Below are positions 32,892-59,754 of a stretch of 64,000 nucleotides of DNA, one piece after another; positions within the stretch are counted from its first letter, which is position 1, and the number at the start of each line of letters is the position of its first letter. Source of the DNA: Balanoglossus misakiensis (taxonomy: Eukaryota; Animalia; Hemichordata); NCBI GenBank assembly GCA_040954595.2, contig CM082584.2, positions 7,335,919 to 7,399,918 of the forward strand, written 5' to 3'. The notes beneath the pieces are model-generated. The model ran no database searches and was not told where the DNA came from. It saw only the letters and a list, made by a program, of their open reading frames with translations. The translations under genes were made by a program, and so were the position numbers.

Positions 32892-35780
32892 TTAAACGAA
32901 GTGCTCCCCATCAAATGCATCTTCGCCGTCACTTGTTGTTTGATCAGGGTTTTCGAATTCGTCAGAGCTGACACTGACTTTCGAAGTAACTGGACATGGG
33001 GCGGCTCTTTTGTGAGCATTGGGGTTCGTCAGGTCAGGTGTAGACGAATGTGACTTGTCGATGGATATACGGCGTGGCGGTGGTGGTGGCCGTTTGTCTA
33101 GTGATGGGCCTCTGACGCCGCGTTGTCTGCGCTGGTGCATTCTGCCTAGTCTGACCGATGTCTGCGTGGAGACATGCTGCGAGCTCTTCGGTCTTGCGCA
33201 GGAGTCACTTTCTCGAACAGCGACAGTGGGCGGTGCCGGCAGTTTAGCGTAAACGTTAGATGGCGAAGAAGGAGGATACGGCAAGTCGGGAGGGCAAGTC
33301 TCTGTGTCTTCACCACGGACGGACTGCCGTCCCTTTGATTCGATCGCCGGCTTTACAGCTCTGGGTCGACGGCGTAAATCATTGTATTTAGGAATAGCAC
33401 CACCGGGGAGGCGGTCAGGCAACGCGTTTTTGCTGGCACAGATTGGACATGCGGTGGTTAGAGGGCAACAGTGGCGATTATTCATCTTGTACCCATTGGG
33501 AGGGCGAGTCGGCTGTAATGTTGGTGGTCGGGTATATACATGTGTATCTTTTTCCCCCGACTGACTGAGACGTGCGTAACCACTGGGGGCGCCCTGATCA
33601 TTCTTGGGGCCATTGACATACATGTTGTACTTGCTGGAAGACTCTTCATCGACCCTCAGATGCTCTCGAATCTGTGCAACGCTGCGAGATCTCTTCATGG
33701 GAGACCGAAGAGGGCTGTTGTATACTTCCTCGTGGTCGGCGACAGGAACAACTGACCTATAGGAACACGAATAAATGGAATGTGTTTTACAATGTAAACC
33801 AATTGACCTGCGCAGAAGGAAATGTACCGACGATCGATGGCACTTGGACAAAATGTGTGTTCAACTTTCGGAAACTGCTCGACTAGAAATACCTACTGGG
33901 AATGGAAGCACTTCAAAATGGAGTCAAATCCAGGTCTCATACTCTTCTCAGAATGCCACATTTTCTTCATGAGTTTGTAGAGCCAATCGGGACACTCGGG
34001 CGGCTGTTCCTGGCGTTCCTTCTGACTTACGGCTTCAATGACCTGAGGTACAAAAGCACAATTTGAACGTCAAATCAAATCACTGTAATATCATGTCTGC
34101 ATGAACTTCAAATCTATCCACGGGAAAATTCTACTTTTCCTTGTTCACACATTACCGCATGATCATCATTCGGTATACTTTAACATGCCTCTACGCAATG
34201 AGTTACACTCGACGTGTATTTGCAGACTATTTACCTCGTCGGAGCGTTGGTGTGGGTAGGGGACTAGAGCTTCTTCGGGTTTGTTCGGGTCTTCGGAAAG
34301 AGCATTGAAGGCCTCCCAACACAACTGGGAAAACATGAAGACATCTCCCGGCTGACTGAATACATGTGAAAATATGGTCTCTGGTGGCGCCCTTGAAAGG
34401 AAAAAAGTGACACACATGTAAGTTAGTTTAGAGGACGAGATTTGGCAGAGTGGTTTCGTGTGATGACTTCCTCCCTTCCTCGGGGTTAAACGTGTTTTCT
34501 GATAACTATAAAGGTGAGTGAGAGTGTTTAGCTCTAATGCATATTGTACGAAGTTAACAGTGTCATTATTAGGTTCAGTTATCAGTCTGATAGCGACTAA
34601 CAATCAAGAACCAAGACAGCCATAAAGAAGCCATTTACTCCCATAGTCTCATGATAGTCAACCTACCATCTTCTAAGATCTTCTGGCATTTCTCGACGAT
34701 GCACAGCTTGAAATGGGCCCTCGTCATAATAGCCAACGACTGGTCGGATGGCCCTGCCCCACCTGTATATCTTCGCCACGCCTTCATTGATGTACACGTA
34801 GCTTGCCTTTAGGCAACCATGGATCCATCCCTCTGAGTGCGCGGTACGGAGGCCAAATGCAACTTGCTCGAGAATTCCCAGGATGCCGCTGACGTCATAG
34901 AGCTTCAGTTTGCAAATTTGCAACAGATTCAAGCCGCCGGGAAACTTTGTCTTCTGCAAGTCGAAGTTGAGTTTGGAAAATGCATAATACAGTACAGTAT
35001 AATCTCTGAATTGCCTAAATTCAAAATGACCGATCAAGATTTGTAATGAACAGTTTATGTTCAAAATTAAATATTGGAATCAGATTTCACGAGTTGTGTA
35101 AAGAGAAATAGAATACAATTTATGCATTCACTTAGTTTCTTATCAACGGCACTGGCGAACAAAAATCAACGGTCAGTATATTCCTTCTCTGCAGCTCAAT
35201 CCGTTTTCATTGTAGTCATACATGTACTTTAAATGTGTGGTAGACAATGAATACCTGAATGAATGTGTCTCCGTTTTGTTCAATATTAACTACTTCGGCT
35301 ATGTTTACATGATCCAAATTCTTAAGCTCCTCGTTGTCTTCAGTGCAACGATCAGTGCGGACGCATTCTACGAAGTACTTTCCATCCTGAAATAAAAATG
35401 AAGAAGTTTCAAGATGTATTTATGTGCGCACGTACATACTTATGTGACACGTGTCGATAATTACGCTCAGAAACAGCATCTAGAAAATTGGTTTTCTATG
35501 CATATTGCATACCTGTGTCAAAGTTGGTTCATCTGGTCCCAGAATTTCACTTGGTAAACAAGGATAGCATTTCATTGCCTCATCTGTCGACTGGTATATT
35601 GTAGATGACATGTTATCATCCTCTTGATTGAAGTCTGGAATCCCCTATTATCAACAACGATGGGAGTATATTAATAATGAAAAATTGTTATTTTCATTTT
35701 CTTTTTTCGCCAAGTATACTCTTCGTTCTTCTGATAAACTGCTGTTAACTGGGCGTGACATAAGGTAGACTACTATAAAA

Positions 35781-35878
<98 letters not shown>

Positions 35879-38800
35879 CGAGTATCTCACCCTTTCAGGA
35901 TGAATAGGCTGGTTGTCTCTTGGAGGCGGACTGCAAGCCAACATCCACGTCAGGTCAGAAGCGTCTGAAGTAAAAGAAGCTTAATTTGTGAATGACGTCA
36001 ACACAGACCAGAACATTATGATTAAAATCATATGTAGATGTAGGCACTGTCTTTGGCTGTTCCGTTCTCTGTCTTTGTCGGCGCCCAACACTACATCTGA
36101 TTTTAACCAGTTTGGGATAAAAAAACTCAAGGGAATCTATGCGTACCTGGCGTTGAATAGCTCTCTTGGTAGTCCCTCAGACACTCGGCGAAATCTTGCA
36201 CTGTCTGCCGGCGAGTTGGTTCCGTTAGGAATCCCCCCATCACCAGGATGTGTATGTTGTCGGGAATCGACGGCGGTTGCTTGACTCGGTACCCAGACAT
36301 CACTCTCTTGACCACCTTCCAGGTCGGCATGCCGTAGAGTTCCGTGTACGGCTGGCAGCCATGGGTAAGGACCTCATAGGCCGCACACGAACACATCCAC
36401 GAGTCGGATTTTCTGGAGTACCTGTAATGTAGGATGGACTCTGGGGCAGAGTGTCGGGTTGGTATCGGGTCGCTTGGACATCCTGGTTAATTATGAGTAA
36501 AAAAAAGAAATAATGTCACGTTATATATATGTGTGCGTGTTTTAAACATCGCTATATTGACAAACAGAATACTGGGTATATTTGTAAGGAGTAGAACAAG
36601 AGACTGGATTTGATTTACGGAAAATATAATCGCCCAAAAGTTACTGCTTAATGTTTCTTTAACCAAGCCAATGCGAATTTCAGATGCTCAATGTTCTGAA
36701 AATGTATGGGTTTGCGCGGTTCCCAGGTTTTTAATGAGAGGTACTGCTTTGAAAATTGTGCACGTAACATGAACTACCATTTGAAACTTGTTGACTTACA
36801 ACACTTCCTCGACTCTAATGGTGGAGACGATACGTACCTTGTACTCCTTCAATGCCGATTGTCGCATAAATACCATCGTCTTCGCGCTGTGTTGTCATCG
36901 TCGTTGATTTGGCCAGTCGAAAGTTGTGATATTTTACCTGCATCTCTCCGTTGACCCCCTGAATGAAGAAATTAGCGCAGACGATGTCGCGCAGAATGAC
37001 TCCGTTCTCGTGGCAGTAGGTCACGGCCGCCAACATCGGCCGCAGCACAATTCTCACCAGGTCACACATGCCCATAAGACGATCCTCCTCTACTCGCCTG
37101 GTGAGAAATTCAGAGACGTTTTCGCGCCAATCTTCAGTGATGATGAAGCACGGCCTGGGCTGCATTTGGAATCCAAGTACATCCACTATGTTTCCGTGGG
37201 CGCCCACTTTTAACATGGTCTGCAGTTCTCGCAGGAAGTCCCTCAGTGACGGCGAATTCGCATCGAAACCGTCGACAAAGTCTTTCACGCAAACTGGCGA
37301 CAGCGCGTTGACTTTAACCCGTTTATTACCGCCCATGCTTGCGGTCGCGGTCCACGTCCACAGTTTCGGATTCTGGTCGGACTCCCTTGGTTTGGACTCC
37401 CCGGCAGAAACGGACAGTCCCTGGGACGCGTAGGCCTTCCCGACAGCCTCTTGGATAGCCCTGTGAGCACAGCTCATTTCTAGTACCACCAGAGATTCCG
37501 ATTCGCTTTTCATGAAAAGCCTTCTGGCGACATGCATTCGCACGGCGAGACACTGGTGGTGGATGAGCGGTCGGATAGCCTCCTGCATGTGTTGAATGGC
37601 AACATCTTTAAATCGTTTATCGGTCATGATTTTCATGGAGTCCCACATTTGTCTGAGACCAAGTGTGTTGCCACCGAGTCCATCCAGTAGAGTTGTACAT
37701 AGATCTGTAGAATTTGCAAAGAGGGGTTCTTTTTAGTCTGAAAGATTTTGTGAGTGACTCGACAGAGTTACATTCCTAATATTTAACCCAGCGTATTCTA
37801 AACATTCTAATTCCTTCTTTGGTTCCCCAAAATGATCATCCATATATCGAACTCAGAGCCTCTTATACTGTCACACAAAAAACTCTCATTATAGGCAAGT
37901 ACCAAACTTTCTGGCAATTGGTACATAGAAGTAAAAAAAAACTGATTTTTTTTCACGCAATGGCAACTACAAACTTACTTTTATCTCTGGTGCTCTGTAG
38001 TACACCGATCAATAGTTCGGAGATGTGAAAGAGAAAGTTCTTGCTGGTTTGATTTCTCATTTCGTAAACAATTCTCTGCAGCGCCTTCAGTGCGCGTCCC
38101 CTGACCTCCTTATCTCCGCTTGTGACAATCTGAAAAAGACAAGAACAATAAGAATATATTGGCTATTTCAATCCTGGTATACGGTGGCCTATTTCATATA
38201 TGATTTTAAGAATGACTCCCGCCGACTACACTGTTCTACACAGCACAAAATCATGGTTCTGTAGGATGGGAGTGGCGGCATAAAACCGACGTTCTTCGTT
38301 GAAATATCACAATACACCCACCACGTTAGCGATGAGCTTCATGGCCAAAAACTGCTCGAACCACGGGGCGCCCAGAACGGTGCTGATATGCCCTTCGAGG
38401 TCTTCCTCACATCTTGCCTCGTCCAAGATTGCGTCTTGAAGAGAGCGCAGACAGTCTTCGTAGTTCTTGTTTCGACGGCGTAGCAGACTAGCCTTTCCTG
38501 AACCGCCCTGCTTTGACATTTCAGTCATCTCCCTAGCTTTTCTCATCACCTCCTTGCAGTATTTGAGCCTGATCTGCTGGCAGGGACTGTCGGACTGGGG
38601 CCATTTCTGCGGACACCTGGCGTCTCGGTTGCACACCAATGGCTGTCTGTGCACCTGGTCTTTGTTTACAGCACGGGACAAGAGCAGGGAGCAGATGACG
38701 TTGCTGTACACTTGAGCCAACAGAACGAAGGCGTTTGTGCTGCCCGCGGTCTGGAGCGACGTCGAGATGATATTCTCTAGCGCTACCAACTCGTCGAAAT

Positions 38801-41800
38801 CCAGAACAGCCACACAGGTACACTCGCGTAGGGCATCGAGGGCCGCTGCTTGGACTTTGGTGGTAAACAAACCGGAGACCTGTGCCAGCATCAGGCAGTC
38901 GCTCTTATCTCTGAGCTCTGGGATGACTCTGCCCAGTAGGAACTCCTCCATCGTACCCCTATCTCGACTGTCCTTCGGCAATCCTTTGAAGATTTCGTTT
39001 AAATGGACCATTCCATTTGAACCTGCTCGACTCTTCAGGTGCAGCTCTCGATATTTCTTGCCTGTGGAGTTCACAAAGCCAATGGTGTGAATCAGGATTT
39101 ACAATAGCCCTGATATATACACACAATGTACATACACTTGTACGTAGTAACGTTATTTACGGTGGGTTATTTGTACTATACATGTATATACCAAGTCGGT
39201 ATTTAATTGAATGACGGTCACGCGTCTGTCAAATAGCTCAGCTATCGATCAAAAAACTTCACCTCCAAATCTGACCTTTTCATTTTCCGGTTCTTACTAA
39301 ATCAGTGTTAATTTAGTTTTAATTCATAACAAATGCATAGTCAGATGGCGCCACACGCTCATACCTGTGCTCTCCTTATATTTACTGCATATCTGTGGAC
39401 CGGAGGGCATGCATAGATCTTCCTCCTTCATATGTACGGAAACAAACCTTCGTCTATCATCATCGTCTGCAGTTTGTATCTTCTTTGCGGAATTCTTGTC
39501 TGCGGGTATATGAGAATTGACTTGAAAATAGTAATGATTTGGAACTACCGTGATTAATTTAAGGCTAAACGGTTATTACGACGCTAATCATTTTGTTGCC
39601 CTTATATTAGATTTGTTGTCCCCGGAGATAGCATACAATGTACATGTCTCAGGTACCAGACCAAGATCAATGCTTACCTTCTGAACTGTCTGTCTGATTT
39701 ATGCGGACGTTGCCGTCCGCTTGGTTCTTTATCCTCTCCTTGGTGATGACGACAAGTTTCTCTGACCCCTTCGCCCTTCGTCCGTCCCAGGTGAGATCCA
39801 CCACGTCCATGTGGCGGAACACGGTGGCGTCCGGGATGACGGCGGCGCTGTTCAGTTTGACGATGACGTACCGCTGCAGGTCAACTCTCCGCTCCTTCAG
39901 GATCACGTCGGTCAGCTCTTCGTCCGGTATCCCCCAGTTGCAGTCGGTCGTGGCGGGCAATATCGTGACCGGGAGCGTCGTGAGGGCGCAGCGCATGCTT
40001 TCGCCTTCGGTCACATAGGGAGATCGGTCGCGTGGCGGGTAGTAGCACCGCACCCCGTTATTTTCCAACAGCTGAACGATCCTGCGGTCCACAGTGTCGT
40101 TTCCCGTCGCGCACGCGATATTAGCGTCGTATTTTTCTTGATAGTTCTTGGCATACAGATCTGAGGAGAATCGTGGAAAAAACAATGTACATGTGACCAG
40201 AAATTTCTGACGTAATATTTAACCAAATAAATGGCATTATTTGAGGAGTGCTTACAAATTATGGTAAGTTCAATTATAACACATCACTGCATGGGTCCTT
40301 TTCACAAACGCGAAAATAACTTTCATACTGGTTTGTCAGCGGTGATTGTCTCCAATCGTATGTGGGAAGTCAGTCGTGAAATACATAGACCTAAGTAGTC
40401 TAGTAACCCCTCTGCCTTTTTTCTACAACGTAACATTACTGGTTGACCTGCTGCCAGTGGCCTTGGTAGCGCTAAATCGCGTAACCAGACTTGCACGTAT
40501 ATAATTGTACCAGTCAATCGAGTTTAAGACATCTAAAAATTCTAGTACATTTTTGTCAAACCCTGGCAATGTATATAGAGGGACTGTGGCCAGACTGAAA
40601 CATGCGGAAGATCCAACCGTGTGCGGGCGCACAGCCGCAACCTGTCACCAACACCCAGATTCCGTGTCGATGAACACGTCGTTTGTAAGCATTCCACAAG
40701 GACGGGTCATCCGTCCTGCTTGACCTAGCCTAGCCTAGCACTCCTTTTCACCTGAAGTATGCCCTGCATTGCACGCTTGAAGAACTCGCTATAAACACCA
40801 CGGTAACTCCGCCGTGCTGAACACGCAGACACATACCTGCGGGAAACTTCGGAACATCCGGATCTGATGAAACGTCATGGTCAGTGTTGGACCTCAGCGA
40901 TGACGTCGCTTCGTCGTAGATGGACCCCGTTTCGTCGCTGATTCGGTACCCGGTTGACGATGACCCCGATGAATAGGTGACAGGCTGGCGCAGGCCCTGA
41001 AATGCATGGGCGCAAAATCGTCAGTAAATAAACCCATTCACCCACTAGTTCCCTCTGTGATGGTCCATCTTTTTATCACAGAAAACAGTGGAATCTGGCA
41101 AAACCAGGGTGGTGAAGGGTGGGGGAAATGGTTAACCTGGTAATATAATGTTAAATGTCAGAGGTTGGGGCCGCAATACACGGGAATTCGTGATTCTAAT
41201 TAAAGCTCCAATAGCTGACACTTTTACCATATTTTTAATTGAAAAAAAAACTTCAACCTTCTCCTTAGTCGACAAATGACACTGTTTTGACTTTGTAGGG
41301 ATTTTAGTACCCACGTGCGCATACCACGATAGCTGTGTGCAGGTACACTTGCAACGGGCAGTTGAATAAATGAGTGCGGCACCCGTTTATTATTTAACTT
41401 GGTCAACAGTTATTGGGGCTTTCAAATGACAACGTATTTCAAAAGAAAATTCAGATTCGGGATTATCTATCAGAAATCCACACGCCTACACTTTATACCA
41501 GGATTTGTTTTATGAAAGGCGAATGGGACGCATGCACGTGATAACACTGAAGAGGATAAGACCACAGGCTGTGCACAAAAGGAGCCTCGTAAACAAATTC
41601 CTTGAAGCCATTTCCTTCTATTCTGAGAAACGCTGTATGATGTTCGCTTACTGAAAAGTGCGATGTGAACTGTATTTTCACCCACACAAGGCGGAAACAA
41701 AGAATTGACAAAACTGTGCTAATTAAATATCTCCATTGTTATGATCACATCAAATTTAGGTCTGAAACCAGACTGTGGACATTGGCTTTCTTACCTCGGC

Positions 41801-44800: not shown

Positions 44801-46270
44801 TAATTCATTGCATATTGTTTGAAGAATTTTGACATGTGTTGTTAACATTTAACCCCACCTTTAAATTTAATTGCCAGAGGGTTTCAGTCGACGACCCGTC
44901 TCCCGGTTGCTATGGATGCAGGCTGTATTATACATGTATCATCTCCACTTTTGTCTTAATGCTCTTTCTCCCCAGCTTTGGTTTTGCAACCGGGCACGTT
45001 CTGCCTTGTTTTCCTTTATTCATTCGCGTGATCTTTGTTCATCGACAGTCACTTCTCGGACTCTTATAGCCGCCACCGTCAGAGATGATATTGGCGACTA
45101 AGAATTTTAGAGTCCATGAAAACTCACTGTTTACGTGTACAAATGAAATCTAAAATTCTAAAGAGGAAGAGAACAACCCAAATCATCAAGTCTCACTTCG
45201 CAATCATAATTTTAATACCAGTGATGAAAACTGGATCGATTTATGAAAGGTTAGTGTTAATATACAACATAGGACTATGTGTGCGAATTAGACGGTAGAT
45301 CTGTGGTCGATGTGGCGTATACTAGTAGTTTGGCGTACATGCACATGTATATGTGTTTTGAAGGTAAATTTTGTCGCGCAAGGAAAAAAAAAAACTTTTT
45401 TTTTCTCGGGGAAAAATGGCATCAACAATTTACAGGTGTACATTCACAGTCATATTAATTTACATATGCCCATATAAAGCTGAAAGGGCGTGTCTGAGTT
45501 CTCCAATTACAGTTTGGTGGCGCCACCCAGCGAAAACCTGTGATTGGCCAGATCTCAACATTCCATGGTAACCGCGTCTAAATCTGCGAAGTTGGGCGTG
45601 CATCACAAGATGGAGCTCGGCCAATACGAGGGGACACACAAGAATGCAACACCCGAACAAGCTCTGATTTCTTGTTGCTTTGCTGTTTGAGTCGCGCCGA
45701 AAACACGGTCGATGATTTGGAGGTCGTGAGGAGACAACCGTTAATCCCTCCGATAGTCATATCATGTGATTCGCGCTCATAACATCTTAAACCGTGAAAA
45801 GACAGTATTACTTCCGCTTGGGGAGACTACTATTTTAGTTGGAATACCCGTGAAGTTGACTGCAGCAATGTTAAGCTCGCCGCGGACACGATGTCACCCG
45901 CAATCGGTGTCAAAGGTTATATCACTGAATTCGATTGTTTGGACTGCTTCTGTGTGATTCACAATGTACCATGTACAGTATATATTCAATTTCCGCATTT
46001 TCCTTCCGCATTTCGGTAGCAGTCGTGCTCCTGCGTTGTTGCTGCTGACAAGCACCCTGTCGTCTGCGCGCCTCCCAAAGAGTACGAGTGTGTCAGAATA
46101 GACGTTTCTCGGCGAACGGACGCTTTTGAGATGGCATGTTCTTTGGGGAGGACTGTGGCACGATGACTTTGCAAGAATGGTGAGAAGAGAACAGGCTTGA
46201 AAGCTGTCAAACTTTTGCGTGACCTGTTCACGGAGTGCTTGAAACGATCGCGGCGGTTCTGTTGAGAGAA

Positions 46271-49200
46271 ATGGAATTATCGCAGTCCGAGGAATCGACG
46301 GTCTTCGTCATGTACGCCGAGGGCAGGAACAAAATCTGGGCGGAGACCCACCTCATCGACATGTTGGAAAGCAGGGGCATCGGGTGTTTCCACGAGGAGA
46401 GAGATTTCCCCCTCGGCGAGACCAGGGACGACGTCATACGGCGGGCGATCGAGTCGCACCCTTGCACCATACTGCCGCTGTCGCAGACGTTCATTCAGAG
46501 GCACAGCCCTTACTTCAAGTCGATCGTCGACTGGAAGAGGGACAACCTGCTGATCTGCATAAAGACCGAGGAACACCTGGAGATGCCCGGCGAGTTCCGA
46601 GGCCTGACCGATCTGGACTACACCAACGAGTCGCAGAGGAAGCATTTCCAGGCGCGGCTACTCAAGGCGGTGCGAGCGGCTCAAAGTGCGACAGCCGCCG
46701 CGGCCATCATCACTTCCTCCCCCGGGGGTCAAAACAGGTCATTGGAATTCCCAAGCACCGAAAGAGCGTCTTCTGCCGCACTTGTCAGGCGCCGCAAACA
46801 TTCGGTTGGAAGTTTGCCAGGTGAGTTTATTTGATGAATGCGGCTTGTTGTATCTCCGAAACCACTATAACGTCATAAATATGTCAGTGGGTATGATTTG
46901 CAAATGCTTGACCACGCGTACGGCCACAACATTGAGGACACTGAAATAAAAAACTCGACGCACGGCGCTTATGTCACGTGATCGATGGTCTTCCGAACTC
47001 TCAGTTATCTATCATTTTTTGTACGACCATTTTCATCATACAAAGAATAAAATTACCAAATATACATCATTGTTAACATTTATACACAATTCCCCCATGC
47101 CCCTGTATTTGCATTACGTACTATCATGCAGTCATTCTTGATTATTTGCCAATTCACAAAGGAATCGTGACAGACATTCGTCTATAACCGTAAGTTCCCG
47201 TTTCCCATGGCGACAACATCTAGCTGGCTTAATAAAAATGAACCAGATATCTGCAGATAATAACTTCCTGTTTTTTGTAAAGAATGGTTACGTGAAGAAC
47301 ACGAAAAGTTGCACGTGCAACTATGAACACATTTCCCCGAGAAATAAGTGCGAAAGTGAAAATACTTCGTCTGCTGAAAACTGCGTGTGTGTGTCTATTT
47401 ATCGTGTCTCTTTTCCCCTGTCGATGTGTTTATATTTTGCGTATGATGAATCATGTATACGTTCGTGATCACATATAAGCCGTACGTTGGAGATAATATT
47501 TATGCCAGTGAATCAACTGTTCAAGTTAGAAAAACTCTTTTAGTTTGTTTTTCTTTTCTGGATCGTCTTTAGTTTCCACAATGCAAAATTGCGATCGACA
47601 GATGAGGAAACCTCGACCGAAAAGCGCCATGTCCATGATGTCGTTGCCAATGTCCATGCTGCAGGATTTTCACCCTTCATCTCAGTGTGCGAGGGAATCT
47701 TGGAATTTCCGAGACGACTGTGACGTGGGTGACGCTGCCATCACTGCGGCCGCCGTCGACGACGACGACGATGGCTACGATGACGGCAGCAACGACGACG
47801 TCGACTTCGATTACGAAGATGACGATGGAGTGGACGAGTTGGAGAGCGCGTCGGTCGTCACCCCTGCGTGGGCGAGAAGTCGGGGGAAGCTCACGGATTT
47901 CGCACCTGCAGCCAACCCCAGACCAGCAAACTCCCGAGCGGGCAGCAACAGATACCGCCATAGCGCGCGAACTGACTGGAGACGCAGCGGCGTTTCCCTG
48001 CCGACGGTGGTATCGGAATCCAAAAGGCGAAGCAGCGTCAACAACATCGGAGGGCGGCTGACCATCCGCAGCCTGAACTTACCAGAGTTTCAGGGGCAAG
48101 AGGTCGCTCTGCCACCGTACGTCCCGGTTGAATATAATGGTCGTGATTCGGTCCAACTGGCTGACGTGCAGGGAGCAAAGGTTAAACTTTCAATAATTAC
48201 AGAACAGGGTAAGTGTTGGTCAATATCGTATTTATCATTGTATTGGAGAACTGCATATCTGGTACAAATAGCCTGGGACCAGGTAATATTTTTATCCCTC
48301 AGGTTGATTCGTTAACTTAACCATAATGTTAATATTCCCCACCCACCCACCCACCCCATCTCTCTCTGTCTCTCTCTCTCTCCCCTCCCCCCTCTCTATC
48401 AGTCTCTGATGGCGTGAAGTCAAATAGGATGTAAATATCCTTATATGAGGTCATTATTTTTCTTCCAGATTCGGTTTACGATAAATTTAAATTGACTCAC
48501 AGACTGCTGAGAAATAACAGCGCTGACGACTTGTTGAGAGAGTACGACGAATTCCGGGAAAATCCTCGTTCGCGGGGAGCCGCGGTGTACCGCAGTTTCA
48601 TCCTGGACCGGCTCCTGCCAAACTGCGAGGACAGCTGCAGCAGCATCTTGAAGTTGACGACTTGCAACGATGCGACGGTGCAGCTGCACGCCTTGCAGCT
48701 TCTGGACCGGAAACTGAAAGAGATTGCCCGGTCCAGATGCCACGGCGGCCGCTCCGGCGACGTCGCGCAGGCGTCGGTCCTGCTGGACCTCCAATCCAAG
48801 ATGGCGGAGTCGCTGTGCAGCGGCCCGCTGTTCAGGAACTTGGAGCGCCTGCGCGTCTACAAGCAAGTTCTCGTCTTGCTGTTCCTCTGCTACGCCCAGG
48901 GCGACGTCGCCAAGAGCGACCTGCCCAGGGACACGCCGAAGGTCAGGAATGTCCTGGACTCCGACAGCCATCACGCTACCCAGCAGAAATCGCACGCCGT
49001 CACCTACAAGTACCCTGTCTCCGTGATCCTTCATGCCGTCGATCGGATTCACGACGAGAGTCACGGCCGCTCCAAGATTCGCGATTTGAGGGACATCCTG
49101 TTAACCATCGCCTCCGTATTTGACCCACATGTGAGCGAGGAAACCTCGCAGAAAGGCAAACACAAGAGAGAAGAACGGATGAGAAAATGCATTGACCACA

Positions 49201-52200
49201 TTTCCAACAGAGGGTGGCTGGAAGTACACGTAATCGTCAACTTTCTCGTGAACAGGGTAAGTTCACCTCATTGCAGCTTTATCCGGGGTTCAAACACAAG
49301 TTTACAAAATTGTTTGGTATGTTAAACCTCGCTGAATTGCTTTGGTTGGTTTGTCACTCTCCTCACTTAGTATTAAGTGTCTCCATCTCTGCCTCCAGAT
49401 CACCAAGGCGACGACATCATCCAACGCCATGGAGACCCTGTGGTTTCTCCAGCGACTTTTCCACAAGTACCAGAATAAAAATGGAGCTACTTTTAAATTT
49501 GCTGCAGTAGTGACTGATGCATATGTGGGTATTCTGGAAGGGGTTACAGAACAAGGTATACTACATTGTACATACTAAGTGAAATTTTATGTGTGAATTA
49601 TATATGTGGACATGTATTATGTCTCCATGTTTATAGTAGTGGATTGACTTTCAAGCCTAAGTGAACATAATTATTCACTCTACTCTGTAGAATTATGTCG
49701 TGCCGTTCTGCGCCACCCAAACCACACCAAAAAGAAGCTGGTTGGACTGACCGAGTTGTGGGGCTTGCATTTTGTGGAGCGGAACAGCGGCGATATACGC
49801 CACTACATCGCCGAGTGTTTGAAACCGTTGCTGTACCACAAATCGGAGATCATCCGCCGGGAGTTGGCGATGAACCTGGTGGTCAGTGACGCTGATGGTA
49901 AACAGTCGCTCAACGAACGGAACGTCCTGGAATCTGTCGCTCTCGACGTGGAGTCGAAATTCAACAGATTCGATCTCGAGTTGGAAGCGGTTGGTGGTAG
50001 TTATCCCGTCGAAGAAGACGCCGATGACGCAAAATTCTACCAAATTAAAGGCAGCTTCGCTCAACACAGGTGTTGGATCAAGTGCCTGAAGGTCGCCAAG
50101 CTGGACGAGTTCTACGCCAGTCCGGACCAAAAGTCGCCGCACTTCTCCGACTTCTCCCGCCAGATCCACATTCTCGTGGCACTTCAGGGGCACGACAACA
50201 TCGTCAAGATGATCGGTTTCCAGCGCACACCGCGGCCATGCTATCTAATCGTGGAAAGATTCGACGAGACGATTCTGGACTATTTGACCCGGAAGTATTT
50301 AAGCGGGCAGCGCATCAAATTGTGTGACCTCATCACCTCCATGGTTTTCCCGGTCGTCCAAGCGGTGCTCCACTGCCATGACAACGACATGATTCTGCGG
50401 GACATCAACGCCAGGAACTTTCACGTTTCAGAATATGGCGCGAAGCAGCGAGTGAAGTACTGTAACTTTAACCTCGCGAAAGAATTGCGGAATCGAGCGA
50501 CGGGAGTTTCTGCTGGCAGGGGTGCAGTAAAATGTTGCAAAGGTAAGAGATGATTTACGAGAAAACGGGGACTGTGTCATCGGCAATAACTGGTAATCTT
50601 CGAACAAATATGCGAACGATATGATTACGATATTTCTAGGAGGAAATGTCGTCGATTTTTCAGCAGTTTTCTTCCCCATTACCTTGGCTAGTATCCCGTT
50701 GCTATGGTAATCAACCAAGTCTCGCGAGATCTCGAAATGAGCGGAAAATCATCTTTTGGTTGAATGCACTCATTATAGTGTTACATCTCTGATTTGTTTT
50801 GTATTTCCAAAGGCAACTTGAATGACATGATACCAAAGCGATGGAGCGCTCCCGAGTCGCTGATGGAGTGTGTCTACAGCCGCAGCTCGGACAGCTGGAT
50901 GCTGGCCTGTGCCATCTACGAAATACTGACGTGTGGCTGTCAGCCGTACACCGAACTCTATGGAATGGACGCAGACGAAATTGTGCAAGAGGTTTGTAGT
51001 AGGCCTACATGGTTTACACACTATTGTTGTATGTCCCCCATACGATTTATTGAAGTGGAAAACCCTGAATCAGTAGATGTTAACTTTCAGACATCACGGA
51101 CGATTGCGATTGATTGCGAGTTTGCTTTCACAGGCCAAACACTAAAAATATTGTTAGGCTATATCATGATCGATTGGGCGATCGACCTTCGAGTCGACTC
51201 GACATGGATTCTCTCGATATTGTTTTACTTCACCTGTCATATTCTGTAAGGTCTAGTGTCTCGCTAGTAACAATTGGACTGCAAACAAAGCCTCATGATT
51301 GTGATCCCTCTATAGAGAAACGTTTCAATTGACTAAGTGTCACGAGGCCAAAAGTTTGTTTTCTGACAGATCTTACAAAATTGGGGATGTACCACCGTCG
51401 TCAACGCTTTCCACGTTCGTGCTTATAAGTCCCAGGTACCGGCGTCATTATCATGATAACAATGGGGGTCGGCTATAGTCTATTATTTGTGGCCGATTTC
51501 CCCCGTGAAAGGACGGTAAACACTGTCTGAAAGGTGTTCGCCCTTAACTGTCGCGATATTTGAAAGTGGTGACGCACTCTGACAGTGTCTTGTTGTCCTC
51601 GCCCGCAGGTCATCTGGGGTTATCGCCTCACGCAACCGGCGTGCATACCAGACCCCGTCTTCAAGGTCTTGATGGCGAGCCTGGTGACGAGCCCGGAGAG
51701 GCGACAGTCTGTGGCCCAAGTGCAGGAGATGCTGGAGGATTTCCTGAACAACACCGAAGATTTCCAAAACGATGACGGCGGTTGGTTTTTTCACGATTGG
51801 TTTCGCACGAAAGGGTCGCTTCTTCTCATGTTGGGGGGTTATGCTTAATTAAAGCACGCGCACACGACACATGCAACTGTTGCATTGAAATTGCGGTCGA
51901 TATACAGAAGGAAACACACAGGGAAAATAGATGACAGTTTGCATCTTAAACCTCTTTTAACATTTCATTGATCCAAACAGCAGCCGAAGGCTACATTTCG
52001 GAAAGTCCACGTTCATCCACTCTATAGTGACATCACGACAATAATAAGTGGTATAGCTGCATTTGCTCATTTAAAAAAAGTTTTGGCAATTTTTGGGGCT
52101 TGACCTTCCTCATTCCTACGTTGTTCTGTCTTGGAAATAAATTGCGCCCCTTGACCTTTACATGTAGGCGTTGACAGTGTGCAAACAACTCGGCCGTGAG

Positions 52201-55200
52201 TTGTGTATCATGTCCAACCCCCGGGTGGCCAAGACAACGCCTTCAAGTGGTGATAAACAATGCGAATCGGTTATACATGTACAATAACCTGGATTTGCCG
52301 GAAAGTTATGGCTGGTTGTAAAAGATGTGCTCTTCAAGTGTTTCCTGGCTTTTATTTCTTTATTTTGGACTTTGCACATTTAGAAACTTTGAAGATCATT
52401 TTCTCAAAACAGCAACTAGCGAATCTTTCTATCGTTTCAGAAAAATTACTAACGTTGGAATTGTGTTGCTTTCCGTGACTTCGGTGTATTTTTGACTATG
52501 GATGACTCGGCAAAATTTGAATGTGCAAAACCCAAAATAAATTAACAGGTGTTTTCTTCGGTTTAGCATCTCAATCCTCTGATTGAAGTGGAATAAATAT
52601 ATTTTAACATGTATATCGCATGCGCAGCAACACTTATCACCTTAAGGCAAATCGTTAATTCAGAAGCTGTTCTGCAATCCACACAAAGATGTGTGTCAAA
52701 ATACAATCGCCAACCGACAAACCTCAGATTTCTGTGATCTCAACGACTCCCTACAGACAATAGCCAGAAGTCATCGAAACTAAACTGTAATCCAACATGA
52801 AACATTTCGTGACCTGATATATGACAGAAAATCACTCTGTATCTCGAAAGCAAACATTAACTATTCAACTGCGTCGCCGTTTCACACAAAAGACTCGTGA
52901 CATGATGCGATTACGTTTCCTTATTTTAATAATTTTTTTTATATTATAGTTTTTGACGACAGCACCCCCAAACTGTTGAAGCGGGACCCGAAACAACCAC
53001 TGAAACCCGAAAGGGTAAGACAATATTTCTTGTTAAATCCATATTTTTTCAAACAGTTTCCTGATTTGTCGTTAAGATATGGTTTTGCTCATTGAGTAGA
53101 CAAGCTAAAGTGTTATAAATAAAATGTTTAGTTGCTACGCATAGTTTGTTTTCTCGCGTGTGTCGTTAGGCTATAAATCGCCACATTGATAAGCGCAGAA
53201 CGTTTTATTGTCCTTTCGATGTTGTGACTTCTAGAATGCGTCGCGCCTCGAAAATCAAAGTCTTTCACTTTTTCTCATATTTTGCTCAACTTTAGTTGTT
53301 TTCTCTTAATAAAATTCGGGGGAGGGGGTGTCACCATGTAAACTTTTGCATCTGACAGCGAAATTTTCTCAAATTTGAAATTCAACCATGTTATATAACC
53401 GCCGTTGTCATTGTACAGATGAGGAACACCTGACCTATACAATTTTCAAACCATGAAAAATAACACATTTTTGTACGCTGGGAAATGGTTGGTTCTGCGT
53501 CTGCCGTTAATCTCAGTGACGGTCTTTGTCTCACTTTCAGGGAATTCCGCGCAAGCTTCAAGATCGGAATGTGTCGTTCGCCACTTTCTATGACGACATC
53601 TACAAAGCGTTCAGGACGGTTAAGGTATGACATGGCAGCTTTCAAGCCGGTTGCAGATTTATAACGCCATGCCAGTGATAAGAACAGCATCTAAGTAGGA
53701 CACGCTAATCAACAGGTCCACTTATGACGTCGAAAAAGTAGGGCGATCTTGGTGGCTGATACAATTACCTTGCTATTTGCACTGGTGATATGAAACAACC
53801 AACACACACCTGCGCAAGTGTAGGGATCTATCTGCACTTTTTACAACCACGAAGAGAGTTCTTGTATTGACTTTTAGTAGACCACAACGATTCAAACTGG
53901 TTAGTGTAGGTTATTGCGCGTTATAAATCAACGAATGGCTGTCTAAAAGTATATAAAATTTAGACGACGAGCATGCAGCTAAACCGTTTCGAGTGCAAAA
54001 CCACCTGTTGATGGCGCTGCGTAAATCATGGACAGTAGTAAACGTAAATACTTGATTTGACATTTTGTATTTTTCCTCGGCATTCCTTTGCAGAACAAAT
54101 ATCCATGTCAAGCTGGCGAGATTCGAAACCAGGATAACCCCGTTAAATGGAAAAGAGAGGGCAGTCAGGCAGATGTTCAGGTAATGGTTTGGCTACACAA
54201 CTGTTTCACACAGAAACTTGCATTGAACCCTCGACTATGAAATGAATAAGCAATGAATATGCAATCACAATTTGACTATTTTGACAATACCTTTTACGTT
54301 TTTCTGTCACCGGCAGGAGGAGGTACACGCCGAATGTCTCTTGGTCCCAAAGACGCTCGAAGAAGAAGACACTTTGCTCAATTTACGACAGGACAACATC
54401 GTGAAGTTGGTGGAGTTTGTGAGAACAGAGCGAGACGTCTTCCTGGTAGGTAGGCAGTCACGTGACTGGGGCGACTCATCCACGATAATGATGCACCTGT
54501 GATTATGACGAATTAAAAACAAGTTATTCGCACCTGCTTGTTGCTCCATCGTGACGTAAGACACAATGAACTACCCGCAAGTATTGTGTCTCAGAAAATG
54601 CAAACGATGGACTTTGATCGTTGACTATCAACAGACTACGGGACTACACTGCAGATTTTGTGCTGTACCGAAAAGCTTCCCGTAAACTGGTGTCTAAATG
54701 CCTGTTTTCAGAGAATAAACCAATGTGCCCATAATTAATCAACTGGTGACAAAATTAGCTCATTGATGGTCTATTATTGAGATACTTTATGTAAACCCTC
54801 TATTTTTTCGATAGTTATCGGAGTACTTTGAATCGGACTGGAATCTCCTGGAAATATGCCACGATAAAGTCATTGCCGTGGACGCCCTACCCAAAGTGCT
54901 ATTGCAAATGGCCGCCGCCATGTCATTCGCTCATGCGCAAGGAATTATTCACTGCGATTTACGCGCCAATTACATCTTTATGGCGTCTAATGCAAACATA
55001 TGGGTGAGTAAATTTGTTGCAAAAAGGGTTTTCATATGAGTATGACTGTGTTTATCATCTGTTTGCTCCGTCATTTTGCAAATCTCCGGCCTGCGTTGAC
55101 CTGAAATGATTCATGTATGCGTTCAGAACCCTTTAACATTGTTTTCCTTTGACGTCCGCGCTGGTGTAAGTTTTCGGTTAAACCACAGACAAATAGAAAA

Positions 55201-58200
55201 GCACTACCGGTAACTTTACAGGTCAAAATTGGTCGCTGGGGACGGGCACAGTGCCTGAATGTCTCCCCGTACGAAGAAAGTTATCAAGAGTCTACGTATG
55301 TGAAAGAAATGCCCGACGATGCAGTTAGGTGGTAAGCTGATGTCACTGTGTTACACGTTGCTTTTCATTCTGTGGCTAACCTTGTACCTTGTATGGCATT
55401 TTACGGCGGGATAACAGGCAGGGGGAAATAGCTAAGGAAGAACTTGTCATGTTGGTATTACAATTTCCAACTGACATGCACAACACTCTCACAGGTCTCC
55501 CCTGGAGGTGATGGATGTACAGACTTATTCCACGGGTTCAGATGCATACATGTTCGCCCAGGTGATCTGGCAACTCTACAACGCCCACAAAATGCCATTC
55601 AACGAAGACCACGAGCTGCAGACCACGATATCTGTCACCCATAAACTTGTGCCATTTCCGCACCTTGACAAGACTAAGGTAGGTAGACATTTCGATAACT
55701 TGCGGCTAGTGGTCAGGGGGATGCCTTGAACCGTGCACTATTAGTGCACATACACTGGTCAGGATCATTCACATGCAACGTGCTTTGTCAGTGTGCAGCG
55801 TACGACTAGCAAAGATATGCCGCCTGTAACAGCGCTTATTTTGTACTTTGGACAACAATTTGAAGTGAAACTGGTCAAGATGTACGTGTTGATAAGTTGG
55901 CATATCATTCAGCGTCATTGATTCTGACGGATGACAAACCACTCTCCCGTCCACTTCACTTGAAGGTACGCAGCGCAGTTCTCCACCGAAAGCATCCACT
56001 GCAGCCCAGCAACTGCCCGGATTGGCTGTACGAGATGATGAAGCGTTGCTGGATCCCGCAGAGAATGAGGCGACCGACCTTCGATGTCATGTATCATTGT
56101 CTCATGAACAGGTTGGTGTTGGAAAATATTGACATTGGTTTTGCAATGATTGTTAGACAACATTAAAGGGATACCTGTGCAAAATAAGCCCCAGTAAAAA
56201 TGGACTAGTCCAAATCCCGTCTAACCAAATCTATCGTATATTCCTATTCTTCGTCTAGATCAATGAGTCCTCTGATTCAATACCAGAAACAGCGTACGTC
56301 ACAGGTCCAGAAGTCACGTTATCCGCGGGTATCCATGGCGTTCATAGGGCTGGAACGAGAGTTAGAACTCGAGGAGCGAGACACGTTTCAGTATTTCCGG
56401 AAGGGCACGTTGGACGACCAGGTCGAGAACGACGTCAACCCGGACGACGCGTACGGCGAAAGCCTGACGAGGAACGAGAGCGTGGTGTATTTCGAGAACG
56501 GGCGGACGTACAACCGCGCCAGACAGAGGAGCCACGCGGCAGTGCTGGGGCCATCTCGCGAGAGGCCGAGGGCGCAGTCGGAGTTGTTTGAACCCAGCCC
56601 CACCGCCGCCATCATCGCCAGTGGCGGAAGCGCCGGCGATGAATCCGAGTCTGAAGAGGAACCCGAATCGTGGCCCTTACCTCCTCCGCCGCTCGCCCTC
56701 CCAACAGGCGACGACGACACCACGGCAACGCCAGCGGCAGTGGAAAGAGTCCCACCGGAAATTGAGCATCCGCCCGACGGTGATTACAATCGCTACGAAG
56801 ACATGACCCTGGGCGGCAACCATATACCGCAGTTTCGTCCAGTGAACAGACCGGGGGCAGAGGAAAAGTCAACGGCCGAAGAAGGCACATCTTCGGCTGA
56901 ACGACAAAATGTGCACCGGGAGTCCAGCTTCCTTCAAGAGCTGGATAGCAGCAAAGCAGCCTTACGATCCAACATCCCGAGAAGAGAAGGTAGCGGCAAG
57001 GGAGACAAGAGGGACAGGAGAACTAGTACATTTTTCAGAAACGTCAAAGACTCGGTGGTCTCTGAAATAACGTCGGTGGTTCATCGACGCAAGCAGGTGA
57101 AGAGTTCCATCAGTTTATCCGCAGACGACCTTCACGAATCGGCGGTCGTTGCTGAATCGACCAAAAGGAGGACAATATGCGGCGATGACGTCAGATTTGA
57201 CGCGGGGAACGGAACCGAAATGCTTGACTTTTTACCACCACCACCACCACCACCTCCTCCAGAATTGTCGCCCGCAGCACCAGCACCGCCAACATCGCTG
57301 CCGCCAAGCGGTGCAAGCATACTGGACCTTTTACCCCCTCCACCACCGCTACCAACGTCATCACCTCCTCCATCACCGCCCGAATCACCACTACTACCAC
57401 CGTCATCGCCGCCCCCACCTCCTCCTCCGCCGCAGCAACCGTTTCCTCCCCTGTTCGAGCCACCGTCACTGCCGCAGCGGATGCGACACACCCTCCCGCT
57501 GTCGTCATCACAACCAGAAGCCGTCACCGCCACTCCAGCGAAAACCAACATCGTCAGTGACGCGGGCCTGTACGAAATGTGCGCGGACACCGTGTCACCG
57601 TCTCCCGGTAGCACACTGGGAGTCCCTCCGTCTTCCGCTATAACAGGGGATCGGCAAGAATCAGAAAAGCGTGAAATAGCAACAGGGGTGGAAACTGGTG
57701 GAGACGTGTCTGCATACCTGAGTCCACAAACCACAGCCGCCGAGAGAAGGCCAAGAAAGTCCAATTCCAAGCGAAGCTCATTGCGGAAGAGTGTAAGCTT
57801 GGACATGGATGCACTGGTGGGAAAGACTGTCGGCGAGTCGCGTTTGGAACGAGGAAACAGCCTGAACAAGTTGGTCATGTTCAGCGTTCCAGGCGAGCTT
57901 GGAAATGGGCAACGGTCGACAGGAAAGAATTCACAGAGTGAGGCGTACGACGGTGCAATAGCTGCCCCTCCCAAAGACGTCTTTCGTCCCAGGAGGCAGT
58001 CGATCACAAGTTTACCTCTCCCTCCGACCCCCGAAGAAGGCCTCTCGGATTTTAAGATCCACCGTTCTCTGTCGCAACCGCACCCGAATCCGCCTTCACA
58101 CAGGAACAGTCCAACGCAGGCAAAAGAAGGAGCGAGCTACGATACCGTGCCATATGAATTCGGCAAGTCGTCGACGTCACAAACTGCTCGTCGGCCAATC

Positions 58201-59754
58201 ACTCAGCAACCCGACCGCGATAGTCCGGTCGGCCAACGTGAAAACCCAGAGAAGATGGAATATGATCAGAATGCCACTCTGCGGGGGAAACAACATTCCC
58301 AGTCTCTTGTAAGGGAGATCCAGGAAACAACACAGCGTCTAAATAACGACAGTTTCTCAGCAAACGGTGCAAAATCGCCGGGGCCTGATTTGGCCATCGC
58401 TGTTGGCGGTCTCGCCACCACTGTCCTGCACGAGGGCGCTCCAGAGTTTGGCCACGTGACAGAGACAAGACAAAGCGGGGAACCACAGTTGCTCCACACT
58501 AATTTGAAGCTGGCGAATCTTGACGAAGAGCGGCACTTGGCGAACGCGAAATCCGAATCGAGAGAAATGTCCAAGTCCTCACCCATATACAGCAGTGTTC
58601 CCGACGAATTCTCTGGCAACGATGGTGATGATGACGACTACGTTGACGACTACGGCGACGATGATGATGATGACGAGTTTGATGATTTTATCGACTCCGA
58701 ACCGGATGAGCCAGACGGCTTCCCTCCCTCGGAGAGAGAACATCCGGGTCTCGGCAATGCATACCTATCTCGACACACTCTGAACGTGGGTAGTGACTCG
58801 AAGGAGAGACTTCTGTCGATGATCACGACCTCGGACGATGGACAACAACCAACAGCAGAATTCAACAAGCAAGCAGCAATCGAAAGGAATACTTTCAAAG
58901 GCGACCTGGTCATAAGTGAATCTCCTCACATCGCCGTAAATCGGAGTACCCCCAATGAGATGAAATCCGCCGAACCCAAGTTCTTGGGAAGAATGAAGCT
59001 GGTGAGTCTGAACGACGCAAAGCAGATTGTTCGGGTAGATTCCGACGCCACAGATCCCCGCCGATTACCAAAATTTCAGCCACCGCCTATATACAGCAGC
59101 GTGTCTGACGACAATTTCGACGAAGCAATCTCTGCGGCCACGTCAGCGGGGGAGTCTGGCTTTCTGTCGCCACTGGACCAAGCACAAAGTGACGCCGCAG
59201 ACCCAACCTTGACGTCATCACCTTCTTCCAGCCGAACGGGTTACTCCAGGGACCGCCTGCTCTCGATGTACTCCAAGCCGCAGAAAGCGAGGCATGATTC
59301 CGGCGGCCAATCACGAGCGGCGGACGAACCGGCGTCTGGTGATGTCGGCGCGAACCACGAAAGCGCCGAAATACCGAGCCCCTTTCACGATGCCGTCGAA
59401 GAAGACGATCGGGTATACGATTGCGTCCCCGACGAAGACGACAAGCAAAAGCGCGCCAAGCAGGCCAGACAGTGGAAACTGTGGAAACGCCCAAAACGGA
59501 AACAGCTCCCCGCCACGATGAGCGAAACTATCGACCGTCATCATCACCAAAACCCCGGAGCGCGCAAAACAGACCGATATGATAACGACGCGCGTAGTGA
59601 GGTTCGGACTATCTCGTCACCTCCCGTGCCCGTCGGACATGAGACTCGTGACCAAGATCAATACCAAGACGACCCGGAAAACGCTGCCGATGTGCAGAAC
59701 TCGACGCAATATCAGTTCCAACAAGAACTGCTGAAGAAGATATCCCGTGTTTGA
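46271..59754 (+). CDS. TIR domain - helical region - tandem tyrosine-kinase-like pseudokinase protein with Pro-rich tail, paralogue 2 (~2607 aa)
   Basis: 16 phase-consistent exons (7824 nt): 46271-46820 (TIR: VFVMYAE..WAETHLIDMLESRGIGCFHEERDFPLG..TILPLSQTF), 47573-48208, 48469-49256, 49399-49555, 49691-50542 (kinase 1: HDNIVKMIG..ILRDINARNF..KYCNFNLAK), 50813-50991 (IPKRWSAPES..SDSWM..YEILTCGCQPY), 51609-51780, 52950-53014, 53541-53624, 54094-54180, 54317-54445, 54815-55003 (IIHCDLRANY), 55222-55331 (VKIGRWGRA), 55495-55678, 55966-56111 (PSNCPDWLYEMMKRCW..RRPTF), 56259-59754. Confidence 0.87.
52359..52541. repeat. Imperfect intronic inverted repeat, probably a decayed DNA-transposon derivative
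   Basis: tttattttggactttgcacattt (52359) pairs with aatgtgcaaaacccaaaataaa (~52520-52541). Weaker outer symmetry at ~52238 and ~52650. Confidence 0.5.

Follow-up and report, generated by a model that had tools for sequence, protein, structure and literature searches.

Two head-to-head hemichordate genes encode degenerate tandem tyrosine-kinase-like domains behind a TIR or TIR-like domain

What are kinase folds kept for when the residues of catalysis have been replaced? The question is raised by a 64,000-nucleotide stretch of the hemichordate Balanoglossus misakiensis genome (contig CM082584.2, positions 7,335,919 to 7,399,918; hereafter the window), in which an earlier note, made from the sequence alone, had recognized four kinase domains. 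The DNA is eukaryotic, with kinase motifs spread over short open frames separated by stops, and a six-frame scan recovered every motif that the note had quoted. They belong to two paralogous genes, P1 and P2, which stand head to head about 6 kb apart (40200-46270): P2 runs on the + strand from its ATG at about 46271 to a stop at 59754, and P1 on the - strand from a TIR-like exon at about 40167 down to the end of its tail at 32892. Both encode, in the same order, a TIR or TIR-like domain (Toll/IL-1-receptor-like), a helical region, two tandem tyrosine-kinase-like domains (KD1 and KD2), and a disordered tail; the note had described the kinase domains without the N-terminal exons and the long tails. 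Both ends of the range it gave, 49691 to 56111, are true exon boundaries of P2 (the acceptor of a KD1 exon and the final base of the last KD2 exon, just ahead of its donor), but the range takes in the kinase exons of P2 only, those of P1 lying outside it at 37704-33897 on the - strand. Our preferred answer, to which we assign a probability of roughly 0.6, is that the double kinase-like domains are catalytically dead and likely provide an allosteric or docking scaffold in TIR-type signaling of the innate-immune kind.

The origin of the domains within the kinase superfamily is visible in their profile matches and motifs. Pfam PK_Tyr_Ser-Thr (PF07714) and Pkinase match exons of both genes, with two stretches each in the database proteins P0001-P0014, and the family profile matches FES (2.8e-44) and PTK7 (1.2e-42), with JAK2 kinase domains also listed. 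Tyrosine kinases typically carry D-L-A-A-R-N or D-L-R-A-A-N in the catalytic loop and P-x-x-W-x-A-P-E in the P+1 loop. KD1 has degenerate signatures of this type (DINARN and PKRWSAPES in P2, DIVCAN and PTRHSAPES in P1), as does KD2 (DLRANY and GCLKASY, plus RRWAPPE and VRWSPLE). The note had likewise read the C-lobe motifs as tyrosine-kinase-like. By sequence, a pseudokinase is defined as missing at least one of the beta3 Lys, the HRD Asp, and the DFG Asp, and all four domains are pseudokinases in this sense: KD1 of P1 has Asn for both the Lys and the DFG Asp, KD1 of P2 has Asn for the DFG Asp, KD2 of P1 has Cys for the HRD Asp and Arg for the DFG Asp, and KD2 of P2 has Arg for the DFG Asp. 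On this definition, the suggestion that all four look catalytically impaired, with replacements common to the paralogues, stands.

Residues were counted over 14 family members, namely P1 and P2 plus 12 database proteins, and five key positions were scored (beta3 Lys, alphaC Glu, HRD Asp, catalytic-loop Asn, and DFG Asp). HMMER alignments to solved tyrosine kinases place LRD at the HRD position of KD1 in both genes and NFR (P1) or NFN (P2) at DFG. An alignment of P2 KD1 to CDKL3 sets LRD, NFN, and a Gln on HRD, DFG, and the alphaC Glu, and the family profile aligned to FES gives the same motif positions for KD1 and KD2 as the HMMER alignments. These results confirm the earlier description of KD1 as having LRD for HRD and NFN or NFR for DFG and as lacking GxGxxG; in the family alignment, a glycine-rich loop was found in none of the 14 KD1 sequences. 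The alphaC position is Glu in P1 and in P0001, its Ptychodera flava orthologue, and Gln in P2; the Gln had been placed correctly, but it is not shared by P0007, the P. flava orthologue of P2, which has Glu. For the beta3 Lys, single-sequence HMMER alignments were two residues off and were dropped in favor of the family alignment combined with the AlphaFold model of the P. flava paralogue P0003, which has a strand at this column, then a short inserted helix, and then alphaC. The strand reads RVKVNAL in P1 and RCWIKCL in P2, and the column reads V-A-[V/L/I]-K in amphioxus and two hemichordate members, V-K-V-N in P1, and W-I-K in P2, from which it follows that P1 lacks the Lys (Asn instead) and P2 has it.

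No member of the family has all five catalytic residues in KD1. The HRD Asp is present in 13/14, the catalytic-loop Asn in 12/14, the alphaC Glu in 10/14, and the beta3 Lys in six (P2, P0007, P0005, P0010, P0014, and P0012). At the DFG Asp, nine members have Asn, two Gly, and three Asp, with the Asn spread over the P1 clade, the P2 clade, and amphioxus; the DFG Gly is canonical in a single member. P0007 and P0005 have Lys, Glu, Asp, and Asn, with only the DFG Asp gone. The HRD His is Leu in ten members, Ser in one, and still His in three (amphioxus and two others), a distribution from which we conclude that the Leu arose within hemichordates. The activation-loop insert of KD1 carries an acidic [I/L/F]-Y-x-x-[I/L/M] motif in seven of the 14 (P1, at 36838-36900 on the - strand, P0001, P0002, P0003, P0008, P0012, and P0014), a candidate site of phosphotyrosine or SH2 docking; the motif does not occur in P2 or P0007.

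KD2 departs further from a working kinase. HMMER alignment to solved tyrosine kinases shows H-C-C (P0001), H-G-C (P1), or H-C-D (P2) at HRD, Tyr at the catalytic-loop Asn, RWG at DFG, and P-P-E at A-P-E, as the note had read the Asn-to-Tyr change and the RWGRA in place of DFGLA in both genes. Its suggestion to look at the conservation of the RWG motif gave a uniform result: the DFG region is R-[W/L]-G-R-A in 14/14 members, amphioxus included (RWG in seven, RLG in seven), and only 25 of 255 columns are invariant, four of them being the R, G, R, and A. The Asn position holds Tyr in seven members, Phe in three, His in three, and Asn in one, and the HRD Arg is present in 1/14. The HRD Asp is retained in 9/14 and is Cys in all five members of the P1 clade, so the loss of the catalytic Asp noticed in P1 is real, and it is confined to that clade.

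The predicted structure has the tyrosine-kinase fold in both domains. The AlphaFold model of the P0003 tandem has a predicted template-modeling score (pTM) of 0.69, with predicted local distance difference test (pLDDT) values mostly of 80-97 in the kinase-domain blocks, and a helical segment at residues 3-114 ahead of KD1. VIA-align superposed its KD1 on RET (Z 23.6, 267 aligned residues, root-mean-square deviation [rmsd] 2.7) and its KD2 on EphA2, the best structural match (Z 24.4, 226 aligned, rmsd 3.3), and Foldseek matches of the model include FES, FAK, RET, SYK, EGFR, and FGFR; the ESM Atlas returned generic kinase clusters only. A JAK-like packing of the two domains was considered and discarded: the P0003 tandem superposes on TYK2 JH2-JH1 (4oli) with an rmsd of 26.4 over 485 residues, so that its predicted domain arrangement is unlike that of TYK2, and on EGFR-KDD with an rmsd of 17.2.

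The first exon of P2 matches Pfam TIR_2 (E 1.4e-8, 35.7 bits against a cut-off of 28). The top Foldseek matches of its AlphaFold model (pLDDT 74) are Hydra TRR-2 (TMt 0.82-0.84), TLR6, TLR1, and MyD88, with IL-1RAcP also found, and the model shows a TIR fold at the N-terminus of P2. TIR_2 also matches the relatives P0005 (2.8e-10), P0007 (6.7e-8), P0010 (1.1e-4), and P0001 (2.7e-4), above the cut-off in P2, P0005, and P0007 and below it in P0001; for P1, the evidence for a TIR is homology to the N-termini of P2 and P0001 only. In TIR NADases of the SARM1 or plant type, the catalytic residue is the Glu of the Y-E-L motif in the alphaC region, and in an alignment to the TLR15 TIR it faces Ser in P2. 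Among the structural matches of the P2 model, the TIRs of SARM1 come after those of receptors and adaptors. At the other end of P2, the tail has no Pfam match and contains islands conserved with P0007, namely poly-Pro runs, R-R-Q-S...L-P-L-P-P-T-P, acidic D-D-E-F-D-D-F, Y-D-C-V-P-D-E, and a C-terminal K-I-S-[R/H]-V (S-x-V), which looks like a class I PDZ ligand.

To delimit the family, 1.84 billion representatives were searched exhaustively by HMMER with the KD1 exon of P1, which gave 14 proteins at E <= 1e-10; word-indexed protein searches gave P0001 alone or nothing, and the rest of the family came from the exhaustive search only. Hidden Markov models of KD1 and KD2 both match in 12 database proteins, all labeled "uncharacterized" or "hypothetical": P0001, P0003, P0004, P0005, P0007, and P0014 from P. 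flava; P0002, P0008, P0012, and P0153 from Saccoglossus kowalevskii (P0153 being a longer cluster member that replaces the shortened form P0009); P0006 from Glandiceps talaboti; and P0010 from Branchiostoma. P0011, P0013, P0016, and P0019, whose sources include a moss, a choanoflagellate, and a bacterium, are ordinary kinases and were left out of the counts. The family thus comprises at least 14 genes and is confined, within the HMMER search, to hemichordates and amphioxus. P0025 from the mussel Potamilus streckersoni was rejected as a member and not counted, since it has just one kinase-like domain and neither a KD2 nor a TIR. This protein, which has a helical lead-in and a KD1-like domain with HRD and NFR, may represent a distant relative from beyond the deuterostomes.

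A maximum-likelihood tree (LG+G4, 620 columns, 14 sequences) pairs P1 with P0001 and P2 with P0007 at 100% bootstrap each, and these pairings place the P1/P2 split before the split from P. flava. The two lineages part deeper than the clades that contain Saccoglossus and Glandiceps genes. Even between orthologues the branches are long (0.4-0.6 substitutions per site), and the listed branch lengths total, by hand addition, roughly 10 substitutions per site. In P. flava, P0007, P0001, and P0004 share a single contig and their accession numbers are consecutive, as would fit a conserved gene cluster. Each orthologue pair is colinear, P2 and P0007 from TIR to tail and P1 and P0001 likewise. Identity between P2 and P0007 is 71% in the TIR, 55-78% in the kinase exons, and 30-37% in the tail; between P1 and P0001 it is 56-61% in KD1, 54-75% in KD2, and 34-40% in the linker. 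Orthologues are therefore most alike in the exons of the kinase-like domains and in the TIR of P2, and the kinase-like domains rank with the best conserved regions of the proteins.

That the catalytic replacements are old, common to amphioxus, and maintained follows from the presence of R-x-G-R-A in 14/14 members over about 10 substitutions per site. The note had held that the replacements predate the duplication and have been kept. This is supported for the KD2 DFG Asp (Arg in 14/14) and for the Asn at the KD1 DFG Asp, which is found in 9/14 across the P1 clade, the P2 clade, and amphioxus; it needs refining for the HRD Asp of KD2, lost in the P1 clade only (5/14), and for the HRD His of KD1, replaced within hemichordates. 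The many replaced catalytic residues could also be read as the erosion of kinase motifs in decaying pseudogenes, a reading that we reject. Frames are open in all modeled exons and splice sites are canonical, the P. flava orthologues carry the same replacements, kinase exons are 55-78% identical while linkers and tails are 30-40% identical, and R-x-G-R-A has persisted over the divergence just given. Since exons are intact, introns are GT-AG, and the kinase-like domains are conserved, the genes are better described as encoding maintained pseudokinases. The note's own refuting case of decaying pseudogenes thereby fails.

What would such proteins do? From its sequence, KD2 is predicted neither to bind Mg-ATP productively nor to catalyze, because it has Arg for the metal-binding Asp, an aromatic residue or His for the Asn in 13/14 members, and no glycine loop; in the P1 clade it is also without the catalytic base. 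KD1 is probably inactive and could bind nucleotide, which would make it at best a nucleotide-binding switch. We therefore infer a non-catalytic role for the KD1-KD2 pair. Because the TIR lies at the extreme N-terminus, the protein is likely cytosolic, and the N-terminal TIR, the short motifs of the tail, and the acidic Tyr motif of the KD1 insert would together fit a cytosolic adaptor. Such an adaptor might be recruited through TIR-TIR contacts, with the rigid double pseudokinase and the flexible, motif-rich tail offering a docking surface or assembly platform. Several observations weigh against this scaffold. The catalytic Asp and Asn of KD1 are still present in 13 and 12 of the 14 members, and KD1 of P0007 differs from an active kinase at the DFG Asp and the HRD His alone, a near-complete set that makes nucleotide binding or atypical catalysis possible. 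The note's own caveat, that residual activity of KD1 is conceivable with the Asp and Asn in place, accordingly holds, and it applies above all to the P2 lineage, which has Lys, Asp, and Asn. EphB6, which has RLG for DFG, is described as binding ATP with a dissociation constant of 94 uM (PMC8454701), so that Arg at DFG alone is no proof of an empty pocket. The tandem-kinase fold model is that of the P. flava paralogue P0003, not of the window proteins, and the TIR-like exon of P1 has no Pfam match of its own.

The same residues underlie a different account, in which KD1 is an atypical working enzyme or an ATP-driven conformational switch and KD2 its built-in regulator, after the logic of JAK JH2/JH1 with the degenerate partner placed C-terminally. 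Besides the catalytic-loop Asp and Asn, this draws on the beta3 Lys of P2, P0007, P0005, P0010, P0014, and P0012, on the absence of nothing but the DFG Asp among the five key residues of P0007 and P0005, and on the ATP binding reported for EphB6 and EphA10, pseudokinases without the DFG Asp (PMC8454701); the pTM of 0.69 of the P0003 tandem is compatible with a defined KD1-KD2 arrangement, which it does not show. We regard it as unlikely. The full catalytic set occurs in 0/14 members, P1 lacks the beta3 Lys and the DFG Asp and P2 the alphaC Glu and the DFG Asp, no member has a glycine-rich loop, the DFG Gly is canonical in 1/14, and the beta3 residue varies freely (Lys, Asn, Leu, Tyr, His, and Ser), as would be expected of a position released from selection for catalysis. 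More doubtful still is an integrated decoy, in which the double pseudokinase would serve as bait for effectors by which pathogens attack host kinases, with the TIR as executioner or output, an animal counterpart of plant tandem-kinase and ZED1/ZAR1 sensing. The fusion of a TIR to non-catalytic kinase folds, the lineage-specific expansion (six paralogues in P. flava and four in Saccoglossus among the representatives), the long branches even between orthologues, and the plant tandem kinases described as immune sensors speak in its favor. The P2 TIR, however, resembles receptor and adaptor TIRs and not SARM1-type NADases, it has Ser where the TLR15 Y-E-L has Glu, and the long, conserved, motif-rich tails suit a constitutive scaffold better. 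By the same analogy, and with as little likelihood, the dead tyrosine-kinase pair could be an effector bait or a phosphotyrosine-regulated switch whose perturbation drives TIR oligomerization, in an intracellular immune receptor family that arose in early deuterostomes and was lost in vertebrates, a loss suggested by the lack of any vertebrate member in the HMMER search. The non-catalytic TIR scaffold thus remains the reading that we favor.

The gene models behind these comparisons were built by placing exons with tblastn, guided by P0001 (1438 aa) and later also by P0007, and by choosing junctions from all GT/GC-AG combinations that give in-frame, stop-free joins. Every chosen junction is GT-AG, and the joined frames are open over at least 11 exons in P1 and at least 14 in P2. 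Two introns of P2 have no counterpart in P1, one in the KD1 C-lobe (50991/51609) and the other in KD2, where it separates the catalytic loop from RWG (55003/55222); the remaining intron positions of the kinase region are common to both genes.

On the + strand, the first coding exon of P2, with the start codon and the TIR, spans 46271..46816 (open reading frame [ORF] 46223-46831, ATG at 46271, 3' end approximate) and is 71% identical to residues 6-177 of P0007. An acidic disordered exon follows at 47830..48219 (limits approximate; tblastn with P0007 residues 241-370, 45% identity), whose ORF (47530-48312) has no Pfam match, and then a helical pre-kinase exon at 48468..49256 (59% identity to P0007 residues 367-624; donor GTAAGT after 49256). 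KD1 begins with its helical lead-in and N-lobe in 49691..50542 (acceptor at 49691, donor after 50542; Pkinase 5.2e-12, PK_Tyr_Ser-Thr 1.4e-10), which contains DFSRQIHIL at 50149, LRDINARN at 50395, and NFN at 50464-50472. A junction search placed its second exon, with the P+1 loop, PKRWSAPES, and the F-helix, at 50813..50991 (PK_Tyr_Ser-Thr 5.3e-10; 73% identity to P0007) and the end of the C-lobe at 51609..51782 (3' end approximate; 69% identity). The linker exon lies at approximately 53538..53624 (tblastn with P0007 residues 1098-1126, 62% identity). KD2 is encoded by six exons: the degenerate glycine-loop region at 54094..54174 (acceptor at 54094, donor after 54174); beta3 to alphaC at 54320..54445 (acceptor at 54317, 54320, or 54323; 67% identity to P0007); and, from the junction search, 54815..55003 with HCDLRANY at 54950 (PK_Tyr_Ser-Thr 24.3 bits, cut-off 23.1; 73%), 55222..55331 with RWGRA at 55234-55248 (78%; motif positioned through the homologous KD2 of P0001 and its alignment to Src-family kinases), 55495..55678 (68%), and 55966..56111 with CPDWLY at 56014 through to RRPTF (PK_Tyr_Ser-Thr 6.4e-7). 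The tail exon, 56259..59754 (acceptor at 56259, frame open to 59754), encodes about 1160 Pro-rich, disordered residues ending in KISRV and a stop.

On the - strand, the divergent TIR-like exon of P1 (39678..40167) is 44% identical to P0001 residues 96-262 and 31% identical to the P2 TIR over 45 aa (E 7e-5); upstream of 40167, a homologous Ser/Asp-rich frame was seen in which no clean start codon could be placed. A helical exon at 38322..39065 (5' limit approximate, donor located) was found by tblastn with P0001 residues 315-561 (41% identity), and all exons after it, to the end of KD2, are set by their junctions. A small helical exon (37979..38129) precedes the first KD1 exon (36838..37704; Pkinase 3.5e-11, alignment to FGFR3), which carries RVKVNAL in beta3, DFLRELQTM at 37240, LRDIVCAN at 36994, and NFR at 36925-36917. 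The second KD1 exon, 36147..36482, holds the entire remaining C-lobe (PK_Tyr_Ser-Thr 4.2e-14). A linker exon (35891..35964) leads to an exon with further linker and the start of KD2 (35513..35644), and the intron between these two, 35964-35891 and 35644-35513, harbors a perfect (GAT)n microsatellite of 32.7 copies at 35781-35878. The KD2 N-lobe exon (35255..35386) is followed by 34667..34953, with HGCLKASY at 34821 and RWGRA at 34764 (67% identity to P0001; motifs positioned through an alignment of P0001 with Src, ZAP-70, and the Src-Abl ancestor), by 34235..34391 (75% identity to P0001), and by the last KD2 exon, 33897..34042, with CPDWLY at 33994 through to MRPGF (PK_Tyr_Ser-Thr 4e-9). The disordered, Pro-rich tail exon with the stop, 32892..33756 (acceptor at 33756, ORF 32892-33860), has no Pfam match.

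Elsewhere in the window, tblastn with 17 proteins (12 of the family and five others) found no third paralogue, with nothing outside the two loci at E <= 1e-4, and Rfam gave no match within 32000-60500. Two open frames lie 3' of P2, one encoding an F-box/LRR protein (60666-61922; LRR_6 1.4e-12, F-box-like 2.6e-6) and one a ZIP zinc transporter (62736-63692; Zip 6e-49). A stop-free frame of 629 aa at 5843-7732 lies where the sequence is rich in GC and A, and it has no Pfam match.

How do these proteins compare with known pseudokinase and TIR systems? The JAK tandems (TYK2, JAK2) likewise place two tyrosine-kinase-group domains in one cytosolic protein, at least one of them a regulatory pseudokinase; JH1 of JAK is active, whereas here both domains are degenerate, the C-terminal one more so, and FERM and SH2 have no Pfam match in P0001-P0014 at E up to 0.01-1, a TIR and a helical region standing in their place. 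In plants, tandem kinases (Sr62, WTK1, Rpg1) and ZED1/RKS1 are described as using tandem kinase or pseudokinase folds non-catalytically in immunity. Plant tandem kinases usually retain one active kinase. They and ZED1 are of the RLK/Pelle lineage, have no fused TIR, and signal via separate NLRs, so the likeness is one of functional analogy; the best sequence and structure matches of our proteins are animal tyrosine kinases (FES, PTK7, RET, Eph, FGFR, Src, ABL), and the search found the family only in hemichordates and amphioxus. TIR adaptors (MyD88, MAL, TRIF, SARM1, BCAP) similarly join a cytosolic TIR to protein-interaction modules, and to our knowledge none has kinase-like domains. In the MyD88 pathway, the kinases and pseudokinases are the IRAKs, separate proteins that have death domains and belong to another kinase group. 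MLKL combines a four-helix-bundle killer domain with one pseudokinase, unlike the TIR and two kinase-like domains found here.

Among animal pseudokinases, the PEAK proteins (SgK223/Pragmin, SgK269/PEAK1) are similar in having lost the DFG Asp, in the disordered Pro-rich regions and helices that flank the kinase fold, and in serving as assembly platforms; SgK223 is described as having SNF for DFG, a pocket occluded by side chains, and a scaffold function (PMC5660093). The PEAK proteins differ by a single pseudokinase, an N-terminal position of the disorder, dimerization through SHED helices, and no TIR, and the only sequence relationship seen to the window proteins is the kinase fold. EphB6, described as a signaling hub, is a tyrosine-kinase-group pseudokinase with RLG for DFG, as in seven of the 14 KD2 domains (PMC8454701). 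It is a single-domain transmembrane receptor with an Eph ectodomain and SAM, and its sequence likeness to KD2, Arg at DFG, is most simply convergent. The proteins fall outside the JAK, MLKL, PEAK, Eph, and plant tandem-kinase families, since they lack the extra domains that define these or come from another lineage (for PEAK, by description), and Pfam scans of the window genes and P0001-P0014 found no family besides TIR and kinase. The role proposed in the note, allosteric or decoy as in MLKL, JAK JH2, or ZED1/RKS1, therefore keeps its non-catalytic part, as judged from sequence, and loses its particular models, none of whose defining extra domains occur here; the nearest functional description is that of a TIR-domain protein with a double pseudokinase. 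In the open-access texts and preprints searched, no description of such a protein was found, and the domain architecture appears to be new and the family unnamed. The family offers a natural experiment on the upkeep of a dead kinase fold, with KD2 carrying Arg for the DFG Asp in 14/14 members, the same change as in the RLG of human EphB6 and apparently independent of it. It is also a candidate lineage-specific component of Toll/IL-1-type signaling in invertebrate deuterostomes and offers a directly testable parallel to the plant tandem-kinase immune receptors. Pseudokinase scaffolds and TIR adaptors are each well known; what appears to be new, within the texts searched, is a TIR fused to two consecutive tyrosine-kinase-derived pseudokinases.

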